64,000 bases of DNA from Marsupella aquatica. Taxonomy: Eukaryota; Plantae; Marchantiophyta. Within the stretch, counting starts at the first letter, position 1; each line of letters starts with the position of its first letter. Both the position numbers and the translations under genes were made by a program. Below the pieces are notes generated by a model. The model had not been told where the DNA came from. It made no database searches and saw only the letters and a program-made list of their open reading frames with translations. Shown here piece by piece: positions 10,727-64,000 of the stretch. Location of the stretch: positions 11,658,238-11,722,237 of the forward strand of contig OZ316892.1 of the NCBI GenBank assembly GCA_973895155.1, read 5' to 3'.

Positions 10727-11140
10727 TATTAGGGTGTCTCAAATCATTAAACTTAATTACAGCTTTTCACTACAGTACATTGCCACTAAAGAGTTCCACT
10801 CATACCATATTAGGGTGTCTCAAATCATTAAACTTAATTACAGCTTTTCACTACAGTACATTGCCACTAAAGAGTTCCACTCATACCATACTAGTGTATT
10901 TTAAATCACTCGTTTAATTACAACTTTTAACTAGAGTACATTGCCACACTAAAGAGTTCCACTCATACCATATTAGTGTGTCTCAAATAGTTTGTATAAT
11001 TACAGTTTTTTACTATAGTACATTGCCACTAAAGAGTTCCACTCGTACCATATTAGGGTGTCTCAAATCATTCCTTTAATTACAGCTTTTAACTAACATT
11101 GCCACTAAAGTGTTCCAATCATACCATAGTAGAGTGTTTC
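10727..11140. repeat. ~81-bp tandem repeat, about 5 copies
   Basis: tattagggtgtctcaaatcatt...ttaattacagctttt...gtacattgccactaaagagttccactcatacca repeated. A partial unit also lies left of the MITE at about 10005-10045. Confidence 0.9.
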
Positions 11141-13368
11141 AAAGCTTCAAAATTACTGATAATGACATTATGCTATAAAGAAATGGTCCTAAATTTTTCA
11201 CAAGACTATGTAAAGGTTTTTTTTTGTTTTATTGGTTTGCCAACCTCTAGAGTGACTATTGGTAATCGTATAAGACCAATCCTTATGGGAAACAGTTATG
11301 GACTGTGTATGAATTTTGTATTCCGTAACTTTTTTGGGTCCATAACCTGTAACTTGGGAATTAAGGCCCATCAATTGTCAGTTATGGGAAAACGTTATGG
11401 ACGATGTATGAATTTTGTAGTCCATAACTTTTCTGGGTCCATAACCCATAACTTGGGAACTAAGGCCCATCAATTGTCAGTTTTGAGACGCCCTATTATT
11501 GTATTTGTAAACTAGCTTGCTTACTCTGTCCTTGAAAGTTAGAGAGATGAAGGAAACAAATATTTATAAATACAAGAAGTGGCAGTTTTGTCAATTTGAA
11601 TAGCTTTAGTGGCAAAGTAAATGAAGTTGTTCTTAAACTTAGATTTTCTGGCATAGATTACAGTGTGATTTTCTCTAGATTTTCTGGCATGATTTTCTGG
11701 CATTGGTAATGTGATAAACATGAATGATCGTGCTTGTTTCACTGCAAATATAGTCATTTGTGCTTTGTGCCAGGAATGGTTGTGGTGTGCAGCGACGCCA
11801 GGAACTTTGCAAAGGACTTGTCATGGTGTCAGGTATTAGTAGAAATAAACATCTCTTAGTTCTTCAAGTGTTTTTAAGATCCTGGTACCATGGCGCATTA
11901 TGGGCAATAATAGGCCCTCTAATCTCAAGTTGAAGCTCTTGTTTTAAGGGCCATTATAGCATAGTTACAATGTCATGTAAACAAGATTTTAGTATGTACT
12001 TCTTGCCCTTCATGATTTTTGTCTTTGTAATTTCCGGTGCTTTTGTGTAGAAGAATGTATAGTCTAGATTTGGGTCCTTGCATCATGAAACTTGTCCTCT
12101 ACTTTTATTGAATGTCATTATAATCAAACTCAACTCTTTAGTGTTTAGGTTCTAGAGTGAATCCTCTAGATAGTGACAGGTGTTTAAGAAAACTGGCAAC
12201 ACATTACACAAGACACCAGCAAGCACACATTACATCGACACCATAGATACATGGTTACATCTTCATCAAGGCTACGTCCACGGAAGCACAAGACCTTTAC
12301 TAAGCTTTGGCCACCATACCCAAACCAAGCCTCCAAGTACAAGCTCCTATCTTGCTCACCTAGCTCCTACCTTCCTCTCTTACAAATGTGCATTAGTCTC
12401 ACCAAGGAACACTAGAAGAAACCGAGCCTTGTTGAGACCGGAAATTGTGACTATTTTTAGTCCTTGTGACACCAATGTGACTTCCTCAACCGTGACCCTG
12501 GTTGAGACCGCACAAGTTATCTAAATGGTGACTAAAATATGGAAAGTCACTAATACTACTGTACATCGTGACATGGATGATACCCAAACTGTGACTAGGT
12601 GCTGACTAAAATAGAGCATAAAACCACACATCTAATGTGACTACACTGTGACTACCATCAGTCATGCCTCTCTTACTACCATGACCTCCGACGAACTGAG
12701 ATTACTGGTATTTGCGACTAAGTTGTGACTATGTGTAGTCATTTTAGAAGTATCAGTTTTAACATCTCCAAGTTGTCAACACATCCTTTGGATCTGGTGT
12801 TAGTAGTGTTTATAACTAAGATCGTTGAAGGAAACTACATGGCCTAGTAATGAACATGACTTATAAGGCGATTGTTGAGGACTTATGGGTCTTGTGTTAG
12901 TATTTGTGGTATAATTGTGAGATGCACTCTTGTCTATGACTATTTTATTCTAGTCATAGTTTTCAAAGTATCGTGCATTCATGACAATTGCACGAGTATA
13001 ATGAAACATAAGGTGCATTCAACACATTCAAAGGCATGATACGGAATGAGTTGAACACATTTTCAAAATGAAGCATTCATTGCAACAGAATTTATCCAAA
13101 TTATAGTTCACAATGATACAAGACTAATGCAATCAATTCATGATCTTGCAAAATGTCTGTGCATCTGCAATACACCAATACAAGAGCTCTAGACAGACAA
13201 GAGCTCTAGACAGACAGCTGCTTCTAACCTACATACCTAGTCATTTGGGAGAACTCAAACCAAAATATTCATATTAACTAATATCATGTCAAAGGTAAGG
13301 GTTCTTATGTTTTCTACATACAGAAAGCATGAAACTAAAACTACAAACACATGGCTGTATGCATGACT

Positions 13369-16300
13369 TTACTGTTCATCCTCTATAAACTTGCTTGGCC
13401 ACAGTATTGTAGAACCTACTGCATCAAGAAGAACTCTTTGAGGAGGATCATCATTGGTGTTGGGAAAAGGGAGAGCAGCCTTTGGAACCACAAGTAAGTC
13501 TATTAACACTACAGAATAACCAGGTGGAACTTTTCTCCCATGGAAAGTTGTGGAACCTGCTTGCACCTTGCCAAATCCTACACATGTCCCACTATCATCA
13601 ATAGCCAACAACTTAGAATGCCCCTATGCATTTGGTGCCTTCACTGTTTCCACCTTAGATTTCTCCTTCACCACTGACCTTGGAGGTTTGTAGGTTGCCC
13701 TTGTTGTGACTTTGCTTCCAGTAGACTTGCTTCTGGTGCGCATGCTCCCTTTCTTTGAATTCACAATAGTCAAGTCTGTCTCCAGGGGCACTTCACATGG
13801 GATGGCCACAGAAGTAGACTCCTTCCTAGGGATGGCCATAGGAGCAGACATCTCTGTTGGCATGGGCACACTAGCAGACCCACCTGTTGTTGTCAATTCA
13901 GGTAATTTTGGAATGGGACCAAGATCAGGGTCCACATTCCATAAACATTCTTCCATATAGGATGTATCTGGCTCAACATTATCATTGTCAGGGAAAGTAT
14001 ATTGTTCCTCTACCCCAACATTTGAATTCATATCACCTTCAACAATGTCAACCTTGAGCAAAAATGGTTCATCATTGCCCTCTGCCAAATCCCGGTTATC
14101 AACAGGCTGCAACTTGGTTGCCTCTAAGTTGCATCGACTCTTCTTCAAGTGAGCAAATTTGCTTTGCTCAACATCTGCTTCTCTCTCTATGGGACACCAC
14201 AACAATATATGTCACATTAACAATGTCAAATACCAAGTCATCATAACCATTCTAATGAGTCATAACCTAGATTTCTAGCATCATATCCAACAAATATATA
14301 TAAAGTCTTACCTTGAACTGCAGATACCACTGGAATGCCAGAAGAGTGCATAGACTTTGCCACCTCAAGCGGTGATGGTGGAACTCCTCCAGAGCTGCTT
14401 TCAATCTTACTTCTCACCGACACTATGACTTCCATTAATGATGCAAACTTACCATGGAACAACTTAGTCAGCTGACTCAATCGATCATTCACCTCTGGCA
14501 GACATGTCTCCACAAACTTCAAACGCTCATTGATCTGTGTCAATGAAGATCCACCTCCCTACATAATAACAGAAAAACAATGAGTCACTCACAATCCACA
14601 GTTGGGTAAGGATATAATTCCATGTATGTGTGGCCTATACTCTTCCCTTGAAGGTCATTCAACTTGGAACCCTAAAATATGTACTTACAGCCTTTGATGA
14701 CTCAGATGCCTCACACTTGTTATTCAATATCTCAGCCCTCAACTCTTCTTTTGAAGGGCTTTGCCCCAACTGGGCTTTCTGCACATCAAGAACTCTTAAC
14801 ATCAGATCCCTTGCAATTTAGAATTACTTCAACAACAAACTCAATAGTACTTATAATCATCAGTAAATGAATATACTATCATTCCCGGTTCTTACCAAGC
14901 GTTTTGTTGTGGGGGCTATGCCGGTTCTTCCTGTCAGGTTAGGGTTCTGAACACTCAATCGTGCATCAGTCATCTGTGCACTCTTCTTTTTGGAAGCATC
15001 GGTCACAAAATAGTCTACCAACCTTTTCCACACTTTATCATCACAGCTTGCTGGTGGTGGCATATCTGGCTTCTCCCCACCTTCTTTCCATGCCTTGTGC
15101 ATCCTCCATCTCTCCTGTTTAATAATCTTGCTTGCTGTACTTTCCAAGCATGCAATGTCCACTCCATCATCACTGCCCACATAATTCCATCGAGCAGCAA
15201 TATTTTGACAAACCGTCTTCCAATCTTGGGCATGTTGTTTTTTAAAATTAATAATACTCACATCCAACCAACGTAGAACTTCAGCTTTCAAATCAGCATG
15301 CCATCGATTCTTGCGAGGACACTCAGCATCCACCCATTGTCTGTCATTCAATTTTACTGTCCCTTTCTTTGTTACTTCCCCCTGTGCACTGCTCTTTGTA
15401 GTACTGGGGGGTGTAATGAGCACCCCTCGATTCACCCTACTTGGAGTTCTGAAGTCACCTTCACAAAGCCATTCCCATTGCCAAACATTCATGTATCAAA
15501 CAGATGCAATTACAAGCTTGTACCTAGGTGGCAATCATTCATCATAAAACATAGTTACATGCAATCTGCACAAACAAGTTTTAATTCCAGGGGACCACAA
15601 AAGATAAAACATACATATACCTGCACCTCCACCTGTAGGCATCTGTACAGGGACAAAATTCTGATATTGTTGTGACTGTTCGCCACCTGCCCAACCTAGT
15701 ACATGCTTCTTTTCTAGTCATTATGTACCCACTTTATAGCATGGATTGACAACATCAACATTCTTCATGACTTAGTAAATTGGTAAACCTGCTATCCACT
15801 TTCAAATTTACCTGACCCCCTTCCATGCTGCATCTGCATAGGGGCGTTAGTGAATACTTTGATCCTTCACCCGCCCAACCTGCACACACATTTGCCATCA
15901 TTCCTTAAACATGAACCTTGAAAAGCCCATTTGATTGGACTATAAAAAAGTGACTTACCCTCCAATGCAAACAAGTGGAGACTTTACCTATTCCTCTTCC
16001 TGCATTCATAGGGGCTGACATATTCTGATACCCCTGCCAATTACCAACACCACCTTCCCAGCCTTGTTCATTCCAAGTCCCATCAGCATCCTCCCAACCT
16101 GGTTCCACCCAAGTTTGTCCTGGCGGACATTGGTACTCCTCATTAGGAGCATTTGCCCAATCAGGTTGAGCAGAATCTACATGCAATTCAAGCGAGGACA
16201 CAATGTAATCTTCTCTCAATCCAACCGTAACATAAATTGCATTCATTGCAAGACCTCACAGTCCTTCACAAATTTTCCACACTACTAATTAGCAAAGGAT

Positions 16301-17060
16301 TGGCATATAAATTAATTGAAATACTCACATCCCCATGCTTGAGGTGGACAGCCATACCCACGAGACTGTGAGTTTTGACCTGATCTACCTCTGCTGTGGC
16401 CAAAACCTGAACTCTGTCCCCTCCCGTAGTATTGGGCACCAATCTGGGATCTACCTCTATTACCACCTTGCCAACCACGGCCAGGGTTCATCCCACCTTG
16501 GTATGGTGGATGCACAGGTTGAGTAGGCAAAGCAGAAGGTACGGGACGTGGAGGGATAGGTTGAGTAGGCAAAGCAGAAGGCACGGGACGTGGAGGGACA
16601 GGTTGAGTAGGCAAAGTAGAAGGCACCGAACGTGGAGGCATAGGTTGAGTAAGCAAAGCAGAACTCACGAGACCCTGCATGACATACATCACCAAATATA
16701 ATTTGAGAAAACATTATGGTCATAGCTAGTGAACGCATGAGACCTAAGTTGTACTCAGCACTTGAACCCAATACCATCATTAGAAAACTACATACTTGCT
16801 TCTTCTTTGGTGGCTCCGCAATGTATTCATCTTCATATCCACCATCCTTATCCATTTCCTCTGGAAAATACTCATCGTCTGGATTGTTTTGTCTCCCCTC
16901 GTCACCCACTTGTGTAGGATCTATCTCATCTGCACATTCTGCCATTGTAGGTATTACCTTGTTGCTCAACCTTTCACTTCGACGCACAGGTCCAGTGGTA
17001 CTGCTAGTCACCCTCCTTTGACACTCCTTTTGTTGCTTTGAAAGGTCTGTGCATCTGCAA
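13369..17060 (-). pseudogene. CACTA-1 TnpA-like (ORF2), multi-exon, with premature stop
   Basis: Ptta/En/Spm Transposase_24-like segment WKRLVDYF...KKSAQMTDARLSVQNPNLTGRTG, and C-terminal FHGRKVPPGYSVVLID...LPFP...DAVGSTILWP (TNP1-type). In-frame TAG at 13624. The 5' boundary is approximate. Confidence 0.75.
16515..16660. repeat. 42-bp coding tandem repeat (~3.5 copies) inside TnpA-like gene
   Basis: aggttgagtaggcaaagcagaagg.ac.g.acgtggagg repeated; encodes PPRPVPSALPTQP. Confidence 0.9.
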
Positions 17061-17412
17061 CACACCAATACAAGAATCAAATCACAATTTTAGTGCCACA
17101 ATCAAATGTTCAGGTCACACCCAACTTAACATCAAGTTTTGGCAGAAAATTGTTCCCTTACAATTCAGCCACATCCATTTTCAAGGAGGCTTCCAGTCCG
17201 GCTATTCTGGCATTCACGTATGCTCGACGTTCCATGGCTTGCCTTTCATACTCACACATATGTGTGTCACTCTGTTCCATCCTATTGGATCACAAGCACA
17301 TGTCATCTATGGTCACCTTGAAACACAATCCAATTACTTGACCATGCATCTGCTCCTTGACAATTAATTTATTACAAAATCTATTTGTGTCCATGCAAAC
17401 AATGCAGGTTAC

Positions 17413-20400
17413 TCAAGGCACAGGTTCACTATCAGCATCTGGATCATTAAGTTGATCCCCTTCAGCAAATGCCTCTACCCTTGTCACAGGAATGAACTCC
17501 CTGCTATCATTCAGAACAGACACTTGGTGTGCACGTCGACGATCAAAGGCACTATGAGAATGTAAATGGAACTCAAGTTTAGATCCTTCCATCCGACGTT
17601 GCCTAGCCTATTTGTGACAGACTACACGCCAACCTGGGGAGTCTTCCACATCCAGGAAGAAAGCTTGCTCCACCTGACTGGGAAAGACAAATGGCTCAGA
17701 CCATTCAGGCAATTTCCCTCTAAAATTGGCAAGCAAGAATCCATCACTGTCTCTCTTCATGGTAGCCCTATTACTGTCCCAATCCTGTCGAACCCATGAA
17801 CCTTTCATAACAATGACAGGGCTGGACATGGCCCCATAATCTAGAGCCCATATGTCAATTAGTTCACCCACATATCCCATCTCCATCCAGGCCCTATCAT
17901 GGTCATGGCTCTGCTGTTGAAATACAGTAATGAGCCCGCAGTCATTTGTCACCCTGTACGCACTCTCATCATCCTTCACTCGAAAGTGATTCCCATATGC
18001 TCTCATCCGTTTGTAACTCTTCACTCTCAGACTAAGGGCATTGGATAGGAGGTAAAGGTCTGCATCCATGTCTGGATGGGTTGTATGATGCTCCCTAATC
18101 GCTAGCCGGATCCACTCTGCCAAACTTGGAAAGGCTGGACCAACAGTGGGATGGGCAGCCTTCAATGACTCGTACTCCCTGAAGAAACAATCTCACAACA
18201 TTAGCTTGGCAATCCATTGAAATGTTGGGAGTTAATCACATGCAGACAATGATATGTTATGAAGGAGGTTGTTAGTAGGACATGATGGTACTCACTGTAT
18301 CCAAGGTTCCATGAGCACAGTGTTGTGCAATACAAAGACATGTGCCAAGTCTCTCATAGCTATTGTCAAATTCTTTGTTGTTGCAGCCCCTTCCAATACT
18401 TCCCCTATGACCCCTTCCTCCTCATCAGAATTCCAGACCCTGGTATTCACATGCTCATACTGTGCTATGTATTCGGTCAGAAATCCTAGGGTTTCATCCT
18501 TGATGTAACCTTTAGCCATGCTTGCTTCTGGCTTGTAATATGTTCTAACGTGACCTTTCAGTAACTTCATGTACCGCTCCAAAGGGTACAGCCAACGAGC
18601 ACTAACAGGCCCAAACTGGTGTAGCTCTTCCACAACATGGACAAGTAGGTGAGTCATAACATCAAAAAAAGCTGGGGGGAAATAAATCTCCAAGTCACAC
18701 AACACCTGAGCAACATCCTCTGTGAGCTGTGGGAACTGGGCTTCATCCCAAACCTTCACACAAATACGGCGAAACACATCACTCAATCGCATGATGACAT
18801 TACGAACAGGCTTCTGCAAGAGACCCCTCAAGCATAAAGGCAACACCTGTTGCATCAACAGGTGATAATCATGGCTTTTCATACTGCCAAGCTTCCTACT
18901 CATAATGTGCTTCTTGAAAGCACTCCCATAGTTTGAAGGAACTTTCAAAGAACCCAACCTTTAGACAAATAGGTTCCACTCATCATCTGTCAGAACATAA
19001 GGCGCTTGGTACTTTAACAATACATCAGCTTTGGTAGCATGTGGCCTCAACCACAGATGGGGTTTGATACCCCTCCGTTCAAGATCCAATCTTACAGCAC
19101 CAGTGTCTTTCTCTCCACACAAAAATCGCAGAAGACTCTCACAAACATTCTTCTCAATGTGCATCACATCAATGTTATGTTTGCTTGGCTCAAACTTCTG
19201 CACAATTGCAATATATATAAAGTGAGTATGCAAATGCATTTAGTTGAGTCTAGTCAAAATTCATGCACATCATATGAAGCATTCCAAAGCAGCAATCATT
19301 TTCAAGGAGCAGAGAGCCTCAGAGGCTTACCCTCCAATACTCCAGTTCCAAGTCCAATATGCTCTGTCTTTTCACACCATATCATTTTCCTGGATCACCC
19401 ACTGCATCTGGCCTGCCTCCTCGTTTGATGTAGTCATCCTTGAGTGCTCCCCACTACTTGATCTCTTCTTTGGTCACCCGCTCTGGGGGTCCGCGATCCT
19501 CAATGGTGTGGTCAAAGTGTGCAATGAGTGCCCGCATTCGTCTGTAAGGGTGATTTGGCCTCAAAAAACGACGATGGCCCATGTATATCACTTTCCCCAA
19601 AACTCTAGAGTGCTCACTGGTGACATTGGGCCCACAAATAGTACATCCCCGATACCCTTTTGTTACTTGTCTTGATATCATACCATGGGCTGGGTAGTCA
19701 GCTATAGTCAAAATGATGATTGCTCTAAGTATGAACGGGTTCAGCCTCCCAAGCCTCTGCAGCACATCATATGTGAGAACTCCTTCATCCCATAGCTTCT
19801 TCAATTCTTCCACAAGGGGAGCCAGGTACATGTCTATGTTGGCAGACACAGTAGAGTCTGGCCTTGGTAGCAGCAGAACTAGGAGGAACAAAAAATCTCT
19901 TTGTAGTCATCCAAGGAGGAAGGTTGTAATTCAAAATAGTTACAGGCCAGCATGAGAACTTATTGTTCTTGTCTCCAAATGGGTTTACCCCATCCAATGA
20001 CAACCCAAGCCTCACATTCCTTGGCTTTGCTGCAAATTCTGGAAACATCTCATCTATGAGTTTCCACTGTCTTGAATTGGCAGCATGTCGTTGCAGCCCA
20101 TCCGAGCTTTTTTTTGAAGCTACCCAAGTCATCATCTTTGAGATAGCAGGGCTTCTAAACATCCGTTGAAGCCTAGGAATGAGTGGAAAATGACGAAGTA
20201 CCTTTGCTGGAACTAAAGACTTCCCTGCGTTTCGATACCTGTGCTTCCCACACACAGTGCATCTCAAGAGATCCTTATACTGATTTCTGAAGAGAATATG
20301 CCCATCAAGACAAGCATGGATGGAATCATAGTTCAATCCAAGATTAGATATGCATCTTTTAGCCTCATACATGCTTTTTGGCAAAAGATTATCAGGCGGT

Positions 20401-21153
20401 AGCACAGTCAGTCGTAGGAAGGCCAACAACTCAGAAACAAAAATGTTGGGGACATTGTGGTTGCCGCAAATGTTCAGGAACATGATGACAAATGCTAGTT
20501 TGGAACACTTGCTACTGGGATAAAGGGGGTGCCTGCATTCCTGAATTTGCACAGGAGAGCCAAACATCCAATCATGCCCAGGGGTTTCTTGCCCTATCTC
20601 AAACTCATCTAGAGGATTGTCAACTAGGCACACTTGCATCAGCATCAGTGTTGTCTTCATTGTCCAACCCATCATGAAATGCATCCAAGTTCTGAAAGAT
20701 GTCTCGCACCATCTGTTCCACATGAATGTCTTCGTCACGTGGCTCTGCCCGACGAATGTCCTGTTGGTGGTCAGTGATCCCACATAGACCAGCAACAGCA
20801 TTGTCCAAATCACCTGGCAGATCCACCTCCGACCGTCGCACAACATTGGCAGCCTGAAAATCTGCCCTCCACTCCTCATCAGAAGTATCTTCCTCCGCTG
20901 GATCATTCCAAACTCGATGTCGTGGATCTCGCCCATTCACCACAATATGCCGCCAAACCTCACTGAGGACCCTGCTACGAGTCCCTTGGCAGATTGCACA
21001 AGGACATCTCATCCTACTGGCTCCTGCAAGTCTATTTCTTAATGTTTCACGCTGCCAAAGCTTATTGTCATGGCGTGCAACTCTTATGGGATGATGTAAA
21101 GGCAATGGCTGTGCATTGCGTTGGGTCTGGGGAGGGTGGTGACGAGGGTGCAT
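17413..21153 (-). pseudogene. CACTA-1 TnpD transposase (Transposase_21/DUF4218/DUF4216-type architecture), disrupted
   Basis: CPC..C, IHAC..GHILF, LRHFPLIPRLQRMF, NVRLGLSLDGVNPFG, YNLPPW, ADYPA, DVMHIEKN, KSHDYH, FFDVMTHLLVH, WLYPLERY, EPFVFPSQVEQAF. Frameshifts at about 20625 and 19890; in-frame stops at 19454, 19382, 18961 and 17608. Confidence 0.93.
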
Positions 21154-21616
21154 TGTAATAGACTGCAAACTCTGCAATGATGAACAGTGGGTGAAAAGGG
21201 TAACAAAGTAGCCTACTAATGGTCAAAAGAAGAAGAAGTTGTTGTCATGTGAATTGGTCATGTACCTGAGTTGAAGTTGTCAACAATACAAATAGCAAAG
21301 GATGTTTGCCCAGCTCTGTAAACACCCCGTTCAGTACAAACTGTCTCCGTAGGGGCCTTGCAACACTGTATGTAGACATGAGGACAAAGCCACATCCCTG
21401 GTTAAGGAAAAGCCAACACGACACACAACACAGAACAGAATTTGAACAGAATTTGAATAGCATCCAAAGCAAAGAGATGATTTGATTGTGGAATGACATG
21501 ATGAGAGGACAATGAATGTTTTTATTACAGATGGAATTTGAAGGAAACAAGTTCACCACTCAACAAGTATTCATTGTCTAAATGACTGACACTGTCATGG
21601 CTCTTCATCAGATAAA

Positions 21617-22531
21617 CTAATCACTGTATTCGCCAGTGTCAAAAGAGTATTCGTCCTCATCACTCATGGTTTCCCACTCTGTGGTTGTGTCCCTGAGTAC
21701 ATCATTAACTAATGGTTCATCACCTCCATCCCAACTCTTACGTCTTTTGTACTTAGGCTTCTGAGGCCACACCTCATTCAGATCAAAGGTTGCTTCATCA
21801 AGTACAATGCCTCTATCTAGTGACTCTTTCATCCAAGCAGGTGAAACCACTTGCAGGCCCCTACTAACCATCATCCGAACTAAAGTCTTTCCAACCATAT
21901 GACAAAGTCTGGAATAGGATAGGGTGACCACATGAGTGGTAGAATCTATGAGGCATTCATGCACCTCACCCTGCCTGTGCAGAATTTTGTGCTTGAAACG
22001 TCTCAACCTTCCCGGTGGAATCCCAACACCCACAAACATGACCTTAACCCCCCTAAACATGACCCGCACATGGGGGTTTATGACAGGCATAGGATGCTCT
22101 AAGAGCTCTTGCCTAGTTCCCTGTGAAGCATCATCATATTGTGCTTTGAACTGCAAAATGTCTTTGGTGGCCCGTTTGTTCAACCATATATCATACTCTG
22201 TTGGGTCCTGAAGGGTGCTATATTCTAGACAGTCATACATCCAAGAGACATCAACAACCTTAAGACCATAGGACTCTCTGTAAAAGTTGATGGTGCTCCA
22301 AAACCACTTCTGCATCACATCACACCAATCATCAGCGATGACGTGTGTGGTGTCTCTACTGATTTGTTTCAACACTATCCCTCCATTCTCAACCAATTGT
22401 CTTTTCATGAACTCCCATCTATTCGTGTCCTCCCCCCTAGTATGAGTGACAAAAATTGCTCTAACTCCAGCAAACAGTGTAGGAGGAAGGTCTGAGGCAA
22501 GCCTCTTCAGTGTCCTACTGGAGGTAGCCAT
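21617..22531 (-). CDS. transposon-borne tandem BRCT-domain protein (304 aa)
   Basis: Two BRCT repeats: LFAGV...KRQLVENGG.V...TTHVI...VVDVSWMYDCL and MFRGV...KHKILHRQG.V...TTHVV...VVSPAWMKESL. Basic KPKYKRRK stretch and acidic tail. Intact intronless ORF inside the TIRs. Confidence 0.85.
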   Translation of the reverse strand: MATSSRTLKRLASDLPPTLFAGVRAIFVTHTRGEDTNRWEFMKRQLVENGGIVLKQISRDTTHVIADDWCDVMQKWFWSTINFYRESYGLKVVDVSWMYDCLEYSTLQDPTEYDIWLNKRATKDILQFKAQYDDASQGTRQELLEHPMPVINPHVRVMFRGVKVMFVGVGIPPGRLRRFKHKILHRQGEVHECLIDSTTHVVTLSYSRLCHMVGKTLVRMMVSRGLQVVSPAWMKESLDRGIVLDEATFDLNEVWPQKPKYKRRKSWDGGDEPLVNDVLRDTTTEWETMSDEDEYSFDTGEYSD

Positions 22532-22845
22532 GTGCAGTGCAGCCTTTTGACAGTGTGAAGGAAAAAGTGGACACCCCTGATATCACCTGCAGATCCATGA
22601 GAATGCCTAAATATGCAATTCATACAAGGATTGCAACAGCAACAGAACAAACTTGGGTATTGCCACATTCACATTCACCATGACATCCATAAACATGCAT
22701 GATATTCGTGTACACAGTGGGAATAACCATAATACAATAGGCAAGTTTGGAGTCCTGACTAGTTTAAAATGTGCAGGTATCCTGCCTAAGACAAAACTTG
22801 GCTAACCCCTAAAATGAACGCATGGTAAATATAAACTCCACCACA

Positions 22846-23520
22846 TCAAAGCCAGGAGATATGATCATGGGCAGGTGTGCCAAGTACAGGGTCAATGGGA
22901 TGCCTCGGGCAGTAAATCATCCACCGCTGCTGTCCATGCACAGTGTGCAGCCAAGGTTCTCTGTCTGGTGCAAAACCATGACGTTGACTCTCTCTTAAGC
23001 AACCCTCATGCCAGGTGGTGGGACATCTCAAGCATTGAATTGCCTTTGCCATATGAGGGTCTTTGTGATCTTGCTTGCATGCTGTACATGCATGCATGGG
23101 GCAAGACTCCACATCAAGCGGCAAGCACTCATGACAATAAAAATGAACACAATATGGCTGAGGGCACTGTCTGACCGCTGGAGAGACCACGCCACACTTG
23201 AAACACTTGTGTATCTTATTCTTGCAATCTACACAAAACCAGGGTTCACCATCCTTGCCTGGTGCAATAACCACTGCAGGACACTTGCCTACAGTGTCAC
23301 CAATTCTACAGACATAGTGAAAATGACGATGGCAAGACCCATCACACATGGCCAGATCTCCATGAAAATCACATATCACACACAGCTGGGGACTACACTG
23401 ACGCTTCTCAATGTCTGACCAGCGTTCAATCTTCAAGCTATGTGGCTCAATTGCCTCATTATGTTTCCGCTTTTTTGTTTCAGTGGCATTTTTTACGGCT
23501 TTCCTCTTCTCCCTAGCCAT
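22846..23520 (-). CDS. transposon-borne composite PHD-finger protein, EDM2/NSD-type (224 aa from ATG at 23520)
   Basis: N-terminal basic NLS-like stretch, then CVICDFHGDLAMCDGSCHRHFH...WFCVDCKNKIHKCFKC...C...C.HFY...CPMHACTAC...QCLRCPTTWHEGCL...MIYCPRHPIDPVLGTPAHDHI. Intact ORF inside the TIRs. Confidence 0.85.
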   Translation of the reverse strand: MAREKRKAVKNATETKKRKHNEAIEPHSLKIERWSDIEKRQCSPQLCVICDFHGDLAMCDGSCHRHFHYVCRIGDTVGKCPAVVIAPGKDGEPWFCVDCKNKIHKCFKCGVVSPAVRQCPQPYCVHFYCHECLPLDVESCPMHACTACKQDHKDPHMAKAIQCLRCPTTWHEGCLRESQRHGFAPDREPWLHTVHGQQRWMIYCPRHPIDPVLGTPAHDHISWL

Positions 23521-23939
23521 TACCAAGACTGAACATTAAACAGACAAATGTACAAAGTTATTACTATTGCATATAGTGAACGACCCCCTTCAAATGACAA
23601 AACAAACTACACATGGGCAGTTCCCCTGAAGAAGCATCATTTGATAACATTGTCACCCAGACCACAACCAGTTTATTAACTCAATGTCTTGAGCCTCAAT
23701 GTCTTGAGCCTCAATGTCCAATCCTCAGCCTGAATTCTGCCGTGTTTGTTCTGAAAACTTCTGTGATCAAATGCTTTTTCAAGATTGTCAATAGCAAAGA
23801 TATCTGCATCACACAAGAAAATTAGTTAGACAGTGTGAATGCAAATTTCAAAACACTTAACAAAATTCAAACCACCATTTCAATTCAAACCAATTGGCCA
23901 TGCATGTTACTACAACAATAAACAAATAATTAGGCTCAA

Positions 23940-24120
23940 CAGACAGGAGTTCAGAACTTGCCATTTGAGATTGACAATCTGAACTTCAGATTCAGACAGA
24001 ACTTGCCATTTGAGATTGACAATCTGAGCTTCAGATTCAGACAGGACTTCATCCAATTCAGGAGTTCAGACAGGAGTTCATCCAGTTCAGGAGTTCAGAC
24101 AGGAGTTCAGACAATCTGAA
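23940..24120. repeat. short tandem duplications inside CACTA-1
   Basis: cagaacttgccatttgagattgacaatctga.cttcagattcaga x2; caggagttcagacagga repeats. Confidence 0.8.
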
Positions 24121-27100
24121 GAGGACTTTGGACTTCAATGAGGGACAGCCTGGCCAAATAGTTATCCTTGTGGCCTTCAGCTGCATGTCTCAGGCTGAAT
24201 TTCACTTTCCAGATTTGAGAGAGGCCTAGTTTTAGTAACTTTTGTCTGACTCAACTTGGGAGCATTCAACCTATTTGCTAGCTTGTAGTTAGCTTTGACT
24301 CTCTGACTGTCAGCTTCATTGACGACCCTCTTGAGATATAAACAATTAGAACAAACACAAGTTGTCAACACAGATTCCATCGGAGCCATTATTACCTATT
24401 ATGTCAAGGCAATGGCTTCTTCTATTCCTTGTTGTAGCCAATTCAAATGTGTCATTCATTAGCAGACCTCTTTGGGAACCATAATAGTATGCAAAAAAAA
24501 AGTTAGCAACATTGCTGGCCTATCTTCACTCAGGATTCCAGGTTCAGGATACTCACTCAGTTGAGCGCAGTTGGACAGAAGTCACCTACCTCCACAAAAC
24601 CTTGTCTTTGAACCTCCAAGCAGGAGCTCACTTCAATACATGAGCTGAGCTAGATGTAAATTGCGCAGCTTCACGTTGCACCTCAGAGCAGGAGCTCGCT
24701 TCAGTACAGCAAGTCCTAGACGGAACCTCCTGTATCGGCCCCACAACAACAATGTTAATAAGGCTCCAAGTTGGACCTCACTTGGGCTAGCTCATGCAGA
24801 CATCATAGCTAGAAGCCAGGAATTACTCAGACACTGAATACTTCAGAATGGCCCATGGTGGTTGTCATACAATGCAACATTGAAAGTTAGAGGAAATATC
24901 CCATTCCGTATATTCAATTCACATTGGTTAGGGATCATACTGACCTCTTTTGGATGTATCAAACCTTTAGCATACCGAGTCAGCTTAGCGCAGTTGGACA
25001 AAAGTCACTCAGCCCCTTGTCCATAGCACGTTCTGAACCTCCCGCCTCACCAAATCCAGCAAAGAGCAGTGGATGCACAGCCTAGATAGCCAAACAAATT
25101 ATGGATCCAATCCTGACACAGTTAGAGTCTATGCGGATGCAACTGCAGCATGGACAAAGGGTCTCTTCCTTCCACTTAATATAGTCAATTCTTGCAAATT
25201 TTGTGAAAGCCCACTTCTGCCGTGACATGTTGTGAGAGTGAGAGGGGTTACGCTACAATCATATGTGGCACTAGTATAAGCCCCGACTTTATTCTGAAGA
25301 CTTTAGTGAATAGACACATGATTGGAGCAAGAATGTGGGCGCAACACATGATTACCTCATGCATGCATTGACTCAGCTTTGCATGATCGTAGCTCCCTCC
25401 TAGGTTGCAGGACCAGCTCTCGATCCAGTTGTAAAGCAGCAGCTTGTCTTGGCTCCTGGTTGCAAGTCGCAACCCAAGCTCTTGCTAGCAGCGCCCCGTC
25501 GCTGTTCAACGACAGTTCAGCTCAGGTAAGCACGCTTGATCTCTATCGTTGAGATCAGTTCAGCTTAAATAACTTGCAGGAGTCAATAAGCAGGAGTCAG
25601 GGCCACTATCATTTTTAGACATCGCAACTCAAACAGCTCATCAGTGACCGCAACTCAAAGGCCGATGCTTCAGTGACCGATGCCTCAGTGACTTTTGTAA
25701 TTCATAAAAGCTTCTCTTCAATGACCACTTCTACTACGGGAGATATGAACACCGAAAACCCAGCTGAAATGGAAAAAAGGGGGGAACGGCACCAGATAGT
25801 CCTCGACCTCTGTGAGAGCGCTCGCGATGGCCACTTCCTAGGTGGAATCTGTCTGCTTTGAAGTGAGAGGAGCACCGCAAATCGTAGCTGAAACCGCGGC
25901 CATCTTCAACAACAACAAATAGCAGCTGCAACGAAATGAGAACTCAGCAAATGTCGCAAATGCTGCCCTGCTCTGCTCTGCTCCGAATGTTGTTCTTGGC
26001 GACACACCAAAGCCTCGTCGCTTTGCTGATTCTCTTCCTACTGGTGCAGCCTAAACCTCAGCCCAAGCAAGCACATTCGATGGGCAGTTTCTGTCGGAAT
26101 GAGTGCCTCCCGCAGTGCAAACTCTTCACAGTGCCTTCCGTAGTGCCTATCGTCGATGCGTCACATAATTGCTCTTGTCCCCTTCCAATACATTCTGTTT
26201 CGTCGATGCAGCACCCTAAACTCGCTCTTCTCGCGTCCTACTACTCACTTTGCAGTCGGGATTGCAATTTGTCGATGCAGCTTTTGCCTTAGTGACAAAG
26301 TGCCCCCTCTTTTCCCTTGCAAAGAATGCAGCATTGGCTCCTCGTCCGCGAAACCAAAGGAATCCAAGGCAGAATGGCAATGCCGTGAAGGAACACATTA
26401 AACCCTAAAGCTGCTTTAATGTGCGCATATTTGTTTTCAACCGTCAGATCATCCTTTCATTAAGTTTACAACCGTCAGATCCTTGCTTGATTAAGGTAAG
26501 CACTGTCACACGAGCTGTCACAAGTTCTTATGCTCATTCCATCAGCATAGTGTGTGGGGTGCCGTTATTGGGTATGTAACATGCATGGAGGGGAGTATAT
26601 GAAGGTAAATTGTGACTATTCCCGGTTCATGGAACGATGTGTGGAGGGGGGTACATGTTGGTCAATTTGTAGGGCATGGCAATAAGTAAAAATAACCTGC
26701 CCTTGCACATGTAACCACGGTAATACACATTAACGTCCCTTGCATATGTAACCACGGCCAATAGTGAAGCCTTTTTGCGGTTGAATGGGGGCATGATGGC
26801 ATGGTGTCTAAATTAATGGGTGCTTATGAGCAATTTTCTTGGCCTGGAATAATCATGGAAAACTCACTAATGGTTAAAATGCATGACTTAACCATGTTTA
26901 AATAGAGTAATCTAATTATATAGGTATATCTACACTAACAATGTATTGGGTAGGATCCCATAGCTCAGGGTTTAGGTTGGTAGGTTCAAATATTGTGCTA
27001 TAAACCATAATGCTATATTGTAGAGTCACTTGTTGAACTTCAACGTAATTGCCTCAATTGAGTTGTACTTGCAACTTTCCAAATAGTTGAAAACATGACT

Positions 27101-30100
27101 CCCCTAAACTTCACCAAAAATCAGTCAACAAGGTGTGACGAACATGACACCCTAAACCTTGGAGTCACTTATTTCTGAAGGTCTCGCACAAGTCATGTAA
27201 GGGAAGGTCTCAGAATAGCTCGGTTTCTTCTAGTGGAATTATCTCTAGCTCCTATAATGCTAGGAAGTGCTAGGTAAGTCTAACCATGGTTAAGTTCCTA
27301 ACTATGGTTAGACTAACTATGGTTTAACCCAAGAGTAAGCGTTAACCAAAAAAACAGGGGGCGGGTGACAAACAGGGAAATGGAGTGGTTGGCTTGAGGA
27401 GGGCTTAAATGTCCTCACATCTATTTTAGTTTAGAGGGCAGGCACTCAGGCCATCAAGCCATATCAACAGTTCACCTCTCCCTCTTTTCCTCAGAGCAAG
27501 GCTCCATGGGTTGGGGCAGGGAGCACAAAAGTGCCCCAGGAATCTTGGAGCCAAATAGTTTACAAGATTCATTTTAGCCATACATACTTTACAAATTTTA
27601 CCCAAAATAGAAACTTTTCAAATTTTGATTTAGCACGAATTAAATTCACATTCATAACATTTGTAAAGTATGATACTAGTGTACCCTGGGCCCTCAACTT
27701 ATATAAATTGGAGAGGTAGTGCAACATTGAGAGAGTAGTTTAGGTTGATTTTAAATTAATTCTTATAATGATTACCAGCAATGGTGAAGACAATGGAGAA
27801 TGTCTGTTCACAAATAGGTTCCATTTACACGCAATGAAGCCCGAGAGTATCCCCAATTGGATAAGTACATATTTTATCCAAAACCCAAAGTGAGTACTTA
27901 ATTACGAGATCTACTCCACACAAACTACAATTGGAGAGCAAGTATGTGGTTGGAAAGCAAGTGGGCGGTTCATGGCCCCACACCTAGTATATTAATCTTA
28001 CAATTGGAGAAGATTCATTAGAGAAACGTGCAACCGAAAGTTTGGATAGGATTCCAAAATGCTCTTTATATGTGCTGGTATTGGAGGAGACTTTTCTGTT
28101 TGTTTCCCCCGGCCATGGGGTTTGCGTGGCCCATAAAAGTTATAAAAATTCTAAAAACGTTTAAAGGAAAATGCTCTTTATATGAAAGTCCAGCTTTTTG
28201 GCTCAAGATTTATCATCTTAGTTGAAGTGGGATGTTTCTCCAGATCCCATGCAAACTTGGAATCCTACATAAGAAAAAGGTTTAGAAAGGGGATCCCGTC
28301 CAACCGTTTATACCTGGACAACTTGGGCACTGTGTAAAGACTCGTATCCCCTTACTCAATATTCACTTCATCTTACTGAAAGTATATATTTCAATCCTAT
28401 CTGATATAAAGGCATAGAACGAGGATCCCAACAAGCTCCCAGAGAAACTTTTGTAGTGTGTAAAGATTAGTATCATTTCACTCAAGATTCATATCATCTT
28501 AGTTAAACTATATGTGTCCATAGATCCTGTTGGTTGAAATCCTATGTGATGAAATGGTTTAGGAAGAGCATCCCATCCCATCCAAGATAATACCTCCAGA
28601 AACTTGTGCAGTGTGTATAGAAGTAAATCTAATGACGTTGAAGCTTGGATGAACATAAATGAAAAATGAGATGTATTCACTTTAGTTCCACAGATTACAT
28701 GTAAACATGCATTTGACTGGTAATCAAATGTTGCAGCTGTCCATATAGCCATCTCTGTAATCTTATTCATTCAACTGAAGGAGTTGGTTTCCCTTGTTTA
28801 TTATAGTTACCGTGTATATAACCTCTTACATTTCCATATCGCATCAATGTAAGGTTCCAGGAGTACTGTGACATTGTAAGGTTCATACAAGTAGTGACGT
28901 CAACTTTAGTGTCAGAGATTTGTCATTTCAAATTTAATTGTGGGTGAATCTCCCAATTAATTCATGACACTGTAAAGTTCTGGGAGTATTGTGACACCAT
29001 AAAGTTCTTGTGTACTCCGAGAGGGAGTGTCAAACATTTGTGTCCAGAGAGTTTCCACTTTAAATCTAATGGTGGACAAAACTCTCTATTATGTCATTAC
29101 ATTTAAAGGTTCCACAAGTATGGTGACACTGTAAAGTTAGTGTGTCCATCCAAGTAACAATGTCACAAGTTGACATAAATTCAGTCAGGAAAACCAGTGT
29201 CAAAGTAACAAAGTAATCAAAAGCCTAGTAACCCAGCACCAAACCTGAGTTATCCTATACATCCATGAGAGTTAACACTCCAAATTAAATGGTGGGCGAT
29301 AGTGCCTATTAAATTTCATCGTAAATGCCAACGCAACGCACAGAAAGAACAGTACAGGCGTCTAAAAGTATCCTCGTGAGCAAAGGCGTGATCTATTATG
29401 ATGTGGCCGATCTGTCCACACGGCTCCAATTCCTCCAATCTGCTCTGCATCCGCAACGAACGATTCGTCCGTCGCTCTGCTCTCGCAGCTCTCATCGCTT
29501 GCCATCTGTTTCCATCGCTACAGTTGTGATGCGCCGAGACTCCAGATTGGGTGTCGATGTAACGCCCATGGGAACCTCTAGACTCTAGACCGAGCTTTGT
29601 TTCTGAATTGATGGAGAGAAGGTCGCAGGGCGAAGCTGGAGCTAATCGGGAAGAGTTTGCTCTCAGAGTTCCAGGCTTTCAGCGCTCGATTGTGCCTCGA
29701 GCTCCTCTGGCCTCTGCGCTCACGGATTCTTTTCGCATGATGATGGTCGAGCGGTGGAGCAAGAAAGAAGACGCGCGGGTGTGCTTCGAAAGTGCAGGTG
29801 CCGTGGCGTCCAATTTTCACACGCACTTCGTTGCGTGTTCTACGTCGGCTGCGGTTCGCATGGAAGGGAGAAAGAAAGGAAGACACGAATCGCGTCGAGT
29901 TTGTGGTGGAGGTGGAAGGTAAGAGCGGCCGCAGAGAGTGTGAGGGATTATCCTGGCAGGAGAAGTCTGTGGCTGCGTTCGAATTCCGGAGAACTTGGTT
30001 CGTGCTGTGGTACTTGTCTAGTTGATTCTCGTTTGTACAGCGGTACCGATCTAATTCGTCTCGAAGCAGAAGCGGATGCTCTCTGAGGAGCATGTTCGTT

Positions 30101-30873: not shown

Positions 30874-33800
30874 ATGTCGGCGAGGTCGGCAGCAATGGCT
30901 GCCAGACGACTGGCAGATACCGTGTCCAGGGATATTGTGGAGGATATATACCGTTGCAGCTTTAAAAAACAGACAGGTGTGAGCCTCAAGTACATGATGG
31001 ACTTCGGTGCTTTTCCTACGGTCAGAAATTTCCTCGTTTCAGCTCAGTTTCTGCACAAAGAGTTGCCTGTTAGATTGGCACATCGGGTCACCGAGCTCGA
31101 AAATTTACCGCACGGCCTGTCTACGAAGTCTCCAGTGTTGAAGGTATTTTATAGTGGCTCGTGATCCCCCATGTCTAATTCTAAATTCCTCTCCACAAGC
31201 TACGTTCGCTCTTTTCTGCTCGGCATTTTTAATAGAATGAGGACTAGGATCATAGCAGGAGCTATTTCTTAGTGAATATTTAAGGTTGCTATCGACTCGA
31301 CTACCATTTGATTAGTGTCACTGTTGCCATCAAAAGCATGCATTATCAACCATGTATGCTGTCAGCAATGTACAACCCCGGATAAACAACTAACAGCTAA
31401 TTAATTCTTGAGGTTGGTTCCCAGTCTTGACACAGATGCTGATGCTCTTCAGAGACTTGATGAATTGTGTAGGATGTGGCATGAACGCAATGAATATGTA
31501 TTTGCGCATGGCCTTCAAATGCATCATTGTCAATTATCAGTCAACTATCATTGGCAAAATATTGAAGGCTGTGGCGTATATTTATGAAGCTAATCTATCT
31601 ATTTGCCATGGTTTTACTTTCTCACAGGTCCGGGACTGGTATGTCGATTCGTTCAAGGACTTGCGAAGCTTCGCAGATATCCGAGACTTGCATGATGAAC
31701 TTCGCTTCACGAACCTTATCTATCAAATTAAAATGCGACACAACGATGTCATGCCAACCATGGCCATGGGTATCAACGAGTTGAAGGAGGACCTTGGGCG
31801 GAAGGTCGGATTGAACGAGCTTCCCGAGATACACCAGTTCCTCGATCGATTTTACATGTCCCGAATTGGTATCCGTATGCTCATTGGTATGCTTCTCAAG
31901 CCTGACTAATTTGAATGTTACCACATTAGCTATGTAAGATTGGTGCGACTTTTTTCCTATGGACATCGCCGCACGGCAAGGGGACCCCAAAACTTGTAGT
32001 CTGAGGAACAGTTCGTGGCATGCAGGTCAACATGTCGCACTACATGAAAAGCATCCACCCCCTGGCTACATTGGCCTCATTTGCACGCAATTGTCACCGG
32101 TTGAAGTTGCCCAAAATGCAATTGATGATGCACGGTCGTCTTGCATGAGGACATATGGCAGTGCCCCTGAAGTTCATGTATATGGTGATCCCAACTTCAA
32201 GTTTGCGTAAGCAATTCCCCGTCTATCGCTGGTGATATTTTCGAAATGCTATCTTTTTGAAAGAAATATAATAGTGCGAAACCATTGCTGGACCGGGGTA
32301 TTCGAAGTCTGAAGGATAGGTCCTCCTCAAGAATGTCTAGCAGGATGCTCCACCACGAAGTTGTGCCTAATTGCCTTGCTTGCTCTGGAGGATTTCCCTC
32401 TCTTCTTTCGGAAGATGTTATGTGGGATAGATTTCGGGTTAAGATGATTCTTCTTTAATGTGCAGTTATGTACCAACACATTTGCATCAAATGCTTTTTG
32501 AGTTGGTGAAGAATTCGCTGCGTGCCGTGCAAGAAAGGTTTCAGGATGATGACCGCGATTTTCCGCCGATTAGAGTGGTTGTCGCCGATGGACTGGAAGA
32601 TGTTACCATAAAGGTGTGATGTTCGCAGTGAACACGCCAAACTATAGTAGACAGTTTTGCATTCAAAATGTGCTTGGTAGCATTGAGAGTTTACGTAAAT
32701 TGTGGCTCACAAGGTTTGTTGCATTTTAGTCAGATATCCGATGAAGGAGGTGGCATTCCAAGAAGCGGGCTACCAAAAATTTGGACGTACTTGTACAGTA
32801 CAGCAAAGAACCCCGCCGCTATTCAAGAACAACCAAACGTCATGGCTGGCTATGGTTATGGGTTGCCAATCTCTCGGCTCTATGCAAGATACTTCGGCGG
32901 AGATTTGCAGGTTATTTCGATGGAGGGTTATGGTGAGTTGCTTTTAATTCCCGTGGAACCAGTAAGAAAGAAATCCAAGAAATCTTCACTGGAATAGCTT
33001 TGGGTTTAAACAGTCATTATTTCTTTCTTGCGTTGCCTCTGTGCAGTCTGTGGGCCTTGATCTCTTTCTTTCTATTCTTTTCCGTTTCGATCCGAGTTCT
33101 GCATACGCATAGTCAGTGTGCAGAGAGTTGTGTTGGGCTATGAACGTGGCAGTCCCAAGTGTGAAATAGTGGGGCAATTAACATAAAATGCTCATCGAGC
33201 TGAAAGTTATAATTTTGGTTTGGGGGAGGTTAACTGGGGATACAGAGTAGAGCACGTGCAGCTGTAAAACAGTGTCATGATTGAAGAGGCCCAATGCTGG
33301 CTAGCCGATCCTGTTCTTGAGTCTAATTAGCTGACAAATAGTTCAGGCTTGGCCAAGCAATGAGCACGGTGTGGGGAAAAGGACTAAACCAAAAGGACCA
33401 CAATACCAAGAAAAATGGTCGTCCTCGAAACACACTAGTTGCAGTTAGATTAGCGTGCGTGCGTGCGTGCCTAGCTACCAAATTGGGGACAAACTGCAAT
33501 CTTTCCAGAAGAAATGCGCAGCGATGACGGTGCTGTCATCGCTGGGCTCGTTCCAGACTGGGAACTCCTTCGATGTGATGATTGCCACTGGTTCCTATGG
33601 GCTCAAAAGTAGTTGATTTTGAAACTTTATTGCTTCTTACCACGTATAGTGAGGGAGCTCAGAACAAACCCCTAGCTCTTGATATTATATGGGCTTGGAT
33701 TTGAAAACCAATTTGACCGTATCCTTCTGAACCAGAAATTAAATCCCTGCATGTGCTAGATAATCCGCATGTCCGTTTCTGCCCACTAATGTGTTGCGAG

Positions 33801-40242: not shown

Positions 40243-40842
<600 letters not shown>

Positions 40843-50878: not shown

Positions 50879-51160
50879 CTTCGAGTGAGGGCAAGATTTC
50901 GAGTGAGGGCAAGATGTTGAGGCGAGGGCAAGATGTCGAGCTGAGTGCAAGATTTGGAGGTGAGAGCAAGATTTCGAGTGAGGGAAAGATGTCGAGGTGA
51001 GTGCAAGATTTGGAGGTGAGGGCAAGATGTCCAGGTGAGGGCAAGATGTCGAGGTGAGTGCAAGATTTGGAGGTGAGAGCAGGATGTCAAGGTGAGGGCA
51101 AGATCTTGAGATGAGAGCAAGTTAGATGTTGAGGTGAGGGTAAAATTTTGAGGCGAGGCA
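50879..51160. repeat. Helitron 3' subterminal ~19-20-bp minisatellite
   Basis: About 14 variants of gaggtgagggcaagat(gtc/ttc/ttg). Confidence 0.9.
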
Positions 51161-54757: not shown

Positions 54758-54870
54758 CTTTGTGGGTTTATAAAACGACTAAAGTAGACACTTTGTGGGG
54801 GTTTATAAAACGACTAAAGTAGACACTTTGTGGGGGTTTATAAAACGACTAAAGTAGACACTTTGTGGGG
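54758..54870. repeat. 35-bp subterminal tandem repeat x3
   Basis: ctttgtggg(gg)tttataaaacgactaaagtagaca. Confidence 0.9.
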
Positions 54871-63473: not shown

Positions 63474-64000
63474 TCACTCTCTCCCACCTTTGCTAAGCAT
63501 ACATCTCCGCTGAATCTTGGAGGGCCAGGCCTCAAAAATATCAAAGTCCCAAGCATTCTATCGCTTCCCTCTAGCTGCTGATTCCAGAAGCCAATCAGGG
63601 GAAAGCACCCAAAGATTGTTGTTCATGACAAAATCACGCACTATTGTCTTAAAGAATTTTCTGCATATTTTCATGTATGACAGACCTACAACATGAGTGG
63701 AGGTTTCTGTTAGACTCTCCTCCACTGTCCCACCTAGCTCAACAACTATAGACTTGTACAATCTGCACTTAGTCTCCCCAATTCCTTCTTCTGCAAATAC
63801 CACACTGAACCCCTTCATAATGGTATTTCTCTCCTTGCCATGCTCATTCAATATAGCATCTGCACGCATAGGATGGTGTCCTATGTTGACAATAGGTCCA
63901 TATTGGACAGAAGCAAAGTTGGGTTTCTCTGTCGCTGCTTCATAGGCTTCCTTTTCAGCCAAAGCCTCTGCAGTGGCCTCCTCACTCTCCCACAACTCAT
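63474..64000 (-). pseudogene. transposon-borne BRCT-domain gene, homologue of the CACTA-1 BRCT gene; 5' part outside window, probable premature TAG at 63558
   Basis: MKGFSVVF...YKSIVVELGGTV...STHVVGLSY...VLSPDWLLES. Reading through the stop gives NAWDFDIFEAWPSK, matching CACTA-1 EATFDLNEVWPQK. Confidence 0.78.

Follow-up and report, generated by a model that had tools for sequence, protein, structure and literature searches.

Cut-and-paste elements rely on host repair to close their breaks, and a few described systems come close to the locus considered here. The canonical CACTA (En/Spm) element consists of a transposase gene, TnpD, and ORF2/TnpA, as laid out in PMC4158355. Enlarged En/Spm elements with four to five ORFs are known from Chondrus crispus (as described in PMC6431247); the description gives the additional ORFs no named domain, and BRCT is not mentioned anywhere in that review. 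On the side of repair, the BRCT domain of plant DNA polymerase lambda (Pol lambda) binds LIG4 and XRCC4, and a role of this polymerase at transposon excision sites has been described (as cited in PMC4444747). In human Pol lambda, helix alpha1 of the BRCT binds the Ku bridge, and mutations at R57 and L60, L60R being one of those examined, were the most damaging; the catalytically dead enzyme acts as an R57-dependent dominant negative (PMC12056208). Phosphopeptide-binding tandem BRCTs, such as those of BRCA1, TOPBP1/Rad4 and MCPH1, have a phosphoserine pocket marked by Ser/Thr-Gly after beta1 and Thr/Ser-x-Lys at alpha2 (PMC10386641). The Sleeping Beauty transposase binds Ku70 (PMC7827188), which provides a precedent for a cut-and-paste element that engages end-joining (NHEJ) factors at its excision site.

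We analyzed a window of 64,000 nucleotides (the whole stretch of DNA under study) containing a CACTA element with a double-BRCT gene. The element shares with En/Spm its CACTA...TAGTG termini, the 3-bp duplication, the TnpD domain string and a putative ORF2-like gene downstream (PMC4158355), but differs in having two extra single-exon genes, for PHD fingers and for a double BRCT, upstream of TnpD. Like the Chondrus elements, it is large and exceeds the usual one or two ORFs (PMC6431247), although in a different host. The predicted protein resembles the N-terminal BRCT of Pol lambda, which is the best-scoring named class in profile and hhalign comparisons and has the same fold (PMC12056208, PMC12910108, PMC4444747); it differs from Pol lambda in having two repeats, no 8-kDa or polymerase domains and few of the Ku-contact residues, and its family has features of its own, a Trp/Tyr-rich alpha2 region and an acidic tail. 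With the BRCA1-type proteins it shares two repeats per chain, and in the PDB profile search BRCA1 BRCT1 and Pol lambda score about equally, whereas the Ser/Thr-Gly and Thr/Ser-x-Lys pocket is missing and the linker of about 40 residues includes a long helix. Unlike in Sleeping Beauty, where the transposase itself contacts Ku70, the contact here would be made by a separate element-encoded protein.

The CACTA element and its double-BRCT gene

The first-pass annotation had described the BRCT ORF as cargo, and the ORF does lie inside a CACTA element (12410-27235) that has CACTA...TAGTG inverted termini, a GAA/GAA target-site duplication and a TnpD-type transposase. The inverted ends start with CACTAG, are 30 nt long and are 87% complementary. 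On the minus strand, the gene order is PHD-finger ORF, double-BRCT gene, TnpD and TnpA-like region. The features are as follows.

12410..27235, minus strand: complete CACTA (En/Spm) element of 14,826 bp, with every gene on the minus strand (termini, GAA flanks, TnpD domains)
12407..12439, no strand: left terminal inverted repeat with the 3-bp target-site duplication GAA (termini and flank comparison)
27206..27238, no strand: right terminal inverted repeat with the 3-bp target-site duplication GAA (termini and flank comparison)
26243..26248, minus strand: candidate 5' splice site GTGAGT of a putative non-coding leader exon (the 5' region has four such consensus matches)
22846..23520, minus strand: NSD-like PHD zinc-finger ORF, 224 aa, intact (PF23004, E 1.5e-5, below the curated cut-off)
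22544..22589, minus strand: candidate 3' splice sites, AAG 12 nt and CAG 55 nt before the ATG (inspection for consensus only)
21617..22531, minus strand: double-BRCT gene, single exon, intact (ATG-to-stop ORF, Pfam, AlphaFold2 model)
22178..22486, minus strand: BRCT repeat 1, residues 16-118, with the Trp-rich alpha2 region of the family (Pfam, alignment)
21770..22069, minus strand: BRCT repeat 2, residues 155-254 (Pfam, alignment, structural superposition)
21620..21769, minus strand: acidic Ser/Thr-rich tail, predicted to be disordered (AlphaFold2 model and alignment)
21521..21526, minus strand: candidate poly(A) signal AATAAA, about 90 nt past the stop codon and at a near-equal distance in locus L002 (sequence inspection)
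17470..21153, minus strand: TnpD transposase gene with Transpos_assoc, Transposase_21, DUF4218 and DUF4216 (Pfam; Transposase_21 and DUF4218 exceed the cut-off)
13372..17089, minus strand: TnpA/ORF2-like multi-exon gene region (Transposase_24, E 3.3e-4, 21.3 bits against a cut-off of 28.7; homologous pieces in the second element)

The frame 22531-21617 on the minus strand encodes 304 aa with no internal stop, and a stop-free frame of at least 304 codons was found in none of 200 shuffles of the CACTA element. A Pfam scan places BRCT in two stretches of this ORF (E 1.6e-13) and reports no catalytic family; when the halves were scanned singly, the first scored 35.1 bits and the second 20.0 bits, slightly below the cut-off of 21.3. 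We modeled the protein by AlphaFold2 from a 15-row family alignment (a fold predicted from the single sequence had a pLDDT of 33 and was unusable). The model has a mean pLDDT of 78.8 and a pTM of 0.45, with two confident domains, a long helix C-terminal to repeat 1, a low-confidence linker (pLDDT <50) and a disordered tail. The modeled repeat 2 has its best match among solved BRCTs in the PARP4 BRCT (Z 15.8, rmsd 1.6 Å over 93 residues), so the repeat that is below the Pfam cut-off on its own belongs to the superfamily by structure, and both repeats have the profile and the alpha/beta fold of BRCTs. Two-domain superpositions gave an rmsd of 9-19 Å, values that go with a mutual orientation of the repeats predicted without confidence. 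By profile and predicted fold, the product is a non-catalytic protein built of two BRCT domains. This bears out the earlier description of an intact 304-aa ORF with two BRCT repeats and no catalytic domain, and the peptide quoted in it is found in repeat 2.

In maize En/Spm, separate mRNAs are made from one promoter. In the window element, the ATGs of the PHD, BRCT and TnpD genes each have an acceptor-like AG at most 20 nt upstream, and candidate donors are present in the 5' region. Both the window gene and its relative in L002 have AAG following a pyrimidine tract 9-12 nt upstream of the ATG, and AATAAA about 90 nt after the stop codon. The splice-site argument is weak, since a comparable acceptor is found within 60 nt at 66 of the 453 ATGs of the element. 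On these signals, the double-BRCT gene appears rather likely to be made as a separate transcript.

The window copy of TnpD has its frame broken near 20626 and 19885. At both positions, contigs of runs X1, X3 and X4 have an indel relative to the window; X2 contigs agree with the window at 20626 and do not cover 19885. In all four runs, the contigs differ from the window most often by A>G and T>C, and the observed/expected ratio of CpG is 0.24 in the BRCT gene and 0.33 in the element, compared to 0.81 in the flank. The excess of A>G and T>C, together with the CpG depletion, would fit a methylated, slightly aged copy. A 1659-bp X2 contig covers the entire BRCT gene with 11 differences and no gaps. 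The depth of the X2 contig over the BRCT gene is 60, compared to 19 for the flank contig, and the X3 and X4 ratios are about 4 to 10; depth does not give copy number, and these values are at most a hint of a few copies of the BRCT gene. Contig depth over TnpD and over the PHD ORF far exceeds that over the BRCT gene, hinting at many related elements that have no BRCT gene or a more diverged version of it; the much greater depth over the PHD ORF likewise hints that this ORF is a more widespread cargo than the BRCT gene. At the right junction, the X2 and X4 contigs reach just 28 and 30 letters into the element, short of the 31-letter rule, and a shared insertion is not claimed.

Several neighboring features were also recorded. 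Immediately to the left of the CACTA element is an array of ~81-nt repeats (10727-11155), of which a copy in the opposite orientation is found at 12132-12161; these may be the ends of another element. Two host genes lie on the plus strand: a pyruvate/branched-chain dehydrogenase kinase exon at 31412-31909, and, at 40246-40842, a cold-shock protein that is glycine-rich and has two zinc knuckles. The transposase domains and the neighboring genes mark the host as a plant, which may be a moss, judging by the likeness of the cold-shock protein.

Two-BRCT relatives and their place before TnpD

A HMMER search of 1.84 billion representatives returned 19 proteins, 15 of which are family or family-like: five full two-repeat relatives (27-34% identical to the window protein), nine partial relatives and one family-like single BRCT, P0018. 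The others are two Pol lambda-type proteins, one multi-BRCT protein and one low-complexity protein, P0013, which was recognized as a low-complexity repeat by inspection and dropped from all alignments. Of the Pol lambda-type proteins, P0019 has HHH_8 and Pol lambda fingers domains, whereas P0017 was judged by eye to resemble the human Pol lambda BRCT. Cluster look-ups and the profile search added P0022, P0024, P0026, P0027 and P0028. The source names of the family proteins, where there are any, are "hypothetical protein" or "BRCT domain", and no Pfam family for the Pol X 8-kDa, fingers, palm or thumb domains was found in the window ORF or in six full-length relatives scanned. In total, about a dozen intact two-repeat ORFs are available, at ~30% identity and with invariant Trp columns; one subfamily has a conserved C-terminal end.

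Other searches added little. A word-indexed protein search found no relative when the single sequence was the query, and one among 3107 candidates when the query was an alignment. A profile search among longer proteins, in which 7994 candidates were scored, found two further family members together with TOPBP1, REV1, one Pol X and one fungal protein; no BRCT-transposase fusion was seen among these candidates, a blank that is weak evidence. A motif-pattern search gave two loci in metagenomes, none in viral contigs and one in prokaryote genomes; the last of these, L003 from Streptomyces, was rejected as an 18-residue chance match to the pattern. ESM Atlas searches returned generic BRCT clusters only, all <0.9.

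Two relatives depart from the common layout. P0018 has a single family-like BRCT, and the tail that follows is of another kind, rich in glutamine and lysine; with 61-69 bits against the repeat-2 profile and the joint family profile, this protein may represent a related lineage with one BRCT. In P0026, both repeats group with repeat 1, pointing to a later re-duplication.

The window contains a second, related element.

54457-64000, minus strand: second CACTA element, with its left end CACTAGTAGAAACC at 54457, extending beyond the window (~69% nucleotide identity to the first element over TnpD)
63477..63998, minus strand: second family member, repeat 2 and linker with one in-frame stop, running past the window end, upstream of TnpD (similarity, tree)

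This remnant is 33% identical to the window protein and 66% identical to P0002; the BRCT gene of L002 is 29% identical to the window protein. TnpD lies 3' of the BRCT gene on the same strand in three of the four members with DNA context; the fourth, L001, is uninformative, as its contig ends too early (467 nt past the stop codon, with no TnpD match within that distance). The gap between the BRCT gene and TnpD is ~0.46 kb in the window element, ~1.0 kb in the second window element and ~0.5 kb in L002. The DUF4218/TnpD segments of the three elements are 60-72% identical, and the spacers share no extended match. Each of the six pairs of family genes with DNA shows higher conservation at codon position 2 (0.50-0.60) than at position 3 (0.34-0.40), in a test that is partly circular because the alignments were built on proteins. 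In-frame stops are present in two of the four family genes with DNA, those of the second window element and L001. We read this pattern as an old accessory gene that would be under selection in active elements and would decay in dead copies. The diverged family and the recurring position beside TnpD argue for an old, maintained accessory gene and against a fresh capture; very probably, then, the double-BRCT gene is a maintained transposon gene. The element was also considered as a Pack-CACTA (non-autonomous, with host fragments and no transposase), and this was rejected: the element carries TnpD and a putative ORF2-like region, and its cargo belongs to a family that is both conserved and diverged.

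The surroundings of the second element and of L002 have features of their own. In the second element, the BRCT gene is separated from TnpD by a small ORF (62764-63189, minus strand) that has a weak F-box match, with E 0.081 in one scan and none in another. Helitron Rep and Pif1 helicase frames (51246-54458, minus strand) begin exactly at the left end of the second CACTA, suggesting that the latter inserted into a Helitron; tandem repeats of 19 nt are present in the Helitron neighborhood at about 50884-51157. In L002, a 140-aa frame with no Pfam match (231-650, plus strand) lies upstream of the BRCT gene, in the place that the PHD ORF has in the window element, and tblastn found no match to the PHD protein in the 874 nt upstream of the L002 BRCT gene.

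Among the open-access papers inspected, none described a BRCT gene in a CACTA element or a transposon-encoded BRCT; a BRCT review makes no mention of transposons or transposition, and a review of large transposons none of BRCT. Repbase reports could already annotate such ORFs. The two-BRCT family is thus apparently undescribed, within a known kind of transposon.

Ancestry of the BRCT repeats

The two repeats are closest to each other. In hhalign comparisons, repeat 1 versus repeat 2 scores 126, whereas the family repeats score 84 and 87 against Pol lambda, 62 and 68 against REV1, and 48 and 54 against TOPBP1. A repeat tree of 31 rows, from which four partial or near-duplicate rows were left out, places the repeat 1 copies on one side of a branch (support 91/77) and 10 of the 11 repeat 2 copies in a single marked (starred) clade. 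This mutual closeness and the grouping by repeat are consistent with a single internal duplication.

The first-pass annotation had likened repeat 2 to the BRCT of plant Pol lambda. A likeness is measurable for non-plant Pol lambda, by profiles and by hhalign; however, it is not unique to that class. A repeat-2 profile built without the window protein scored three Pol lambda BRCTs at 52.9, 44.7 and 29.1 bits, compared to at most 21.3 bits for REV1, TOPBP1 and the multi-BRCT protein, with the Pol lambda scores inflated because two of the three references were chosen by similarity to the window protein. The PDB is an unselected comparison set. With repeat 2, human Pol lambda ties with BRCA1 (34.8 versus 35.0 bits; 36.2 versus 37.0 in a second search). 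With repeat 1, Pol lambda scores 21.2 bits, behind PARP4, REV1, TOPBP1 and Rad4, and with the joint profile it is below REV1. Fission yeast Fcp1 scores 14-19 bits in these searches, compared to 21-36 for the Pol lambda BRCT.

In the profile and structure comparison that had been proposed with the annotation, hhalign favors Pol lambda, whereas Foldseek ranks the ligase IV and Rad4 pairs first; the VIA structural ranking has PARP4 and XRCC1 first (Z 14-16), with Pol lambda at Z 12.0 and rmsd 2.1 Å over 94 residues. In the BRCT-family phylogeny, the best tree (42 rows) has the three Pol lambda BRCTs as sister to the family, with support of 19/84, but AU tests rejected none of four sisters (Pol lambda, REV1, the multi-BRCT protein and TOPBP1 BRCT3; p 0.39-0.56). 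Given the lead in profiles and hhalign, the PDB tie with BRCA1 and the AU results, Pol lambda is the leading but unproven donor, and the balance of these comparisons leans slightly toward a Pol lambda-type origin of the BRCTs.

Candidate binding surfaces and possible roles

Few of the known repair-binding residues are conserved in the family. In human numbering, a map that may differ in plants, R57 occurs in 6 of the 30 family repeats and is combined with a hydrophobic residue at position 60 in 2 of the 30, whereas all three Pol lambda references have Arg and Ile at these positions. Repeat 1 of the window protein is one of the two that keep both; in repeat 2, position 60 is an Arg. R55 has no diagnostic value, being present in 4 of 29 family repeats and in none of the three Pol lambda references. 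The family lacks the phosphopeptide pocket: in the register of the joint-profile PDB search, Ser/Thr-Gly is found in 1 of 15 repeat-1 and 1 of 13 repeat-2 copies, Ser/Thr-x-Lys in none of 31, and neither is present in the window protein; the pocket Lys alone occurs in 8 of 14 repeat-2 copies. The alpha2 region is kept in the family: all 17 repeat-1 copies share two Trp columns, and conserved Tyr, Cys and Gly positions are retained by 11-13 of the 14 repeat-2 copies. A short acidic motif of aromatic plus Ser/Thr residues is found in the tail of six of the seven long-tailed members, with a pattern that was chosen after viewing the alignment. For the BRCT protein of L002 paired with exon 1 of the neighboring TnpD gene, a complex prediction run without alignments was uninformative (score 0.00).

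Our preferred, though tentative, explanation is that the protein is a conserved CACTA accessory protein acting as an adaptor that would bring host break-repair factors to excision or insertion sites. One BRCT, probably of the Pol lambda type, would have been captured once and then duplicated internally. The protein would probably be translated from its own mRNA, which would start at the element promoter, use an alternative splice acceptor and end at a poly(A) site of its own. Partner contact would probably be through the family-conserved aromatic alpha2 region and the acidic tail, and probably not through a Ku-binding helix or a phosphopeptide pocket; host DNA-break-repair factors would in this way be recruited to the sites where the element excises or inserts. 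Behind the adaptor reading stand the repair-centered biology of BRCTs, a probable descent from Pol lambda, the role reported for plant Pol lambda at excision sites and its BRCT-dependent binding to LIG4 and XRCC4 (as cited in PMC4444747), and the contact of the Sleeping Beauty transposase with Ku70 (PMC7827188). Counting against it, the donor class is not settled by trees, the known repair-binding residues are not conserved, and the PHD-finger neighbor would suit a chromatin role equally well. Of the adaptor-or-decoy proposal in the first-pass annotation, a catalysis-free, transposon-borne two-BRCT gene kept beside TnpD stands, whereas the residue counts speak against the specific Ku decoy (2 of 30 repeats; Arg at 60 in repeat 2 of the window protein). 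In a bolder and still more tentative form, a transposon lineage would have domesticated and doubled a Pol lambda BRCT to steer or pre-empt host end joining, as a transposon-encoded repair adaptor.

The strongest competitor, which we nevertheless regard as doubtful, is a chromatin or anti-silencing module, in which the BRCT protein and the PHD-finger protein form a scaffold that targets or shields the element and has no direct role in break repair. The NSD-like PHD ORF immediately upstream of the BRCT gene, the CpG depletion of the element relative to its flank, as expected under methylation, and the poor retention of repair-specific residues are all in line with such a module. On the other side, tblastn found no PHD match in the 874 nt upstream of the L002 gene, and the second window element has an unrelated small ORF beside its BRCT gene. 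The pocket of histone-reading BRCT pairs is absent, as well.

A mimic or decoy of Pol lambda, whose BRCTs would take the place of Pol X on Ku70/80 (or XRCC4-LIG4) and hinder or redirect gap filling at the transposon breaks, is improbable. Pol lambda BRCTs are the top-scoring among the named classes, window repeat 1 retains R57 and a hydrophobic residue at 60, and catalytically dead human Pol lambda has a dominant-negative effect that depends on R57 (PMC12056208); conversely, the family-wide counts of these residues given above, on a human-derived map, are far from those of the Pol lambda references, and repeat 2 of the window protein has Arg at the sensitive position. The rarity of the R57 pair and the absence of the phosphopeptide pocket make a simple Pol lambda-style Ku decoy unlikely.

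We consider quite improbable an element-internal regulator, in which the protein would bind TnpD, TnpA or itself (BRCT-BRCT, as in XRCC1-LIG3) and tune the assembly or activity of the transposition complex. The fixed place before TnpD at all three informative loci would agree with this, as would the different conserved aromatic residues in repeats 1 and 2 and the presence of the XRCC1 BRCT that pairs with ligase III among the top structural neighbors, although structural rank among BRCTs tells little about partners. Since the canonical layout has only a transposase and ORF2 (PMC4158355), the BRCT gene is no general requirement of CACTA elements. It is very improbable that the gene is a passenger of the Pack-CACTA type, a fragment picked up from the host that does nothing for the element: stops in two of the four family genes with DNA would be expected of one, but the dozen or so intact, ~30% identical two-repeat ORFs with invariant Trp columns and, in one subfamily, a conserved C-terminal end, and a position beside TnpD that stayed fixed while the spacers diverged past alignment, would not.

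Being small and confined to a single exon, the double-BRCT gene lends itself to tests in moss, for which gene targeting is routine and repair mutants are in common use. The repair contact known for Sleeping Beauty is made by the transposase itself (PMC7827188); if the adaptor reading is true, a BRCT protein that is distinct from the transposase and has long been conserved would be a case of transposons evolving a means of their own to influence which repair pathway is used. Whatever its partner, the protein adds an apparently undescribed BRCT family, and another accessory gene in bryophyte-type CACTA elements.
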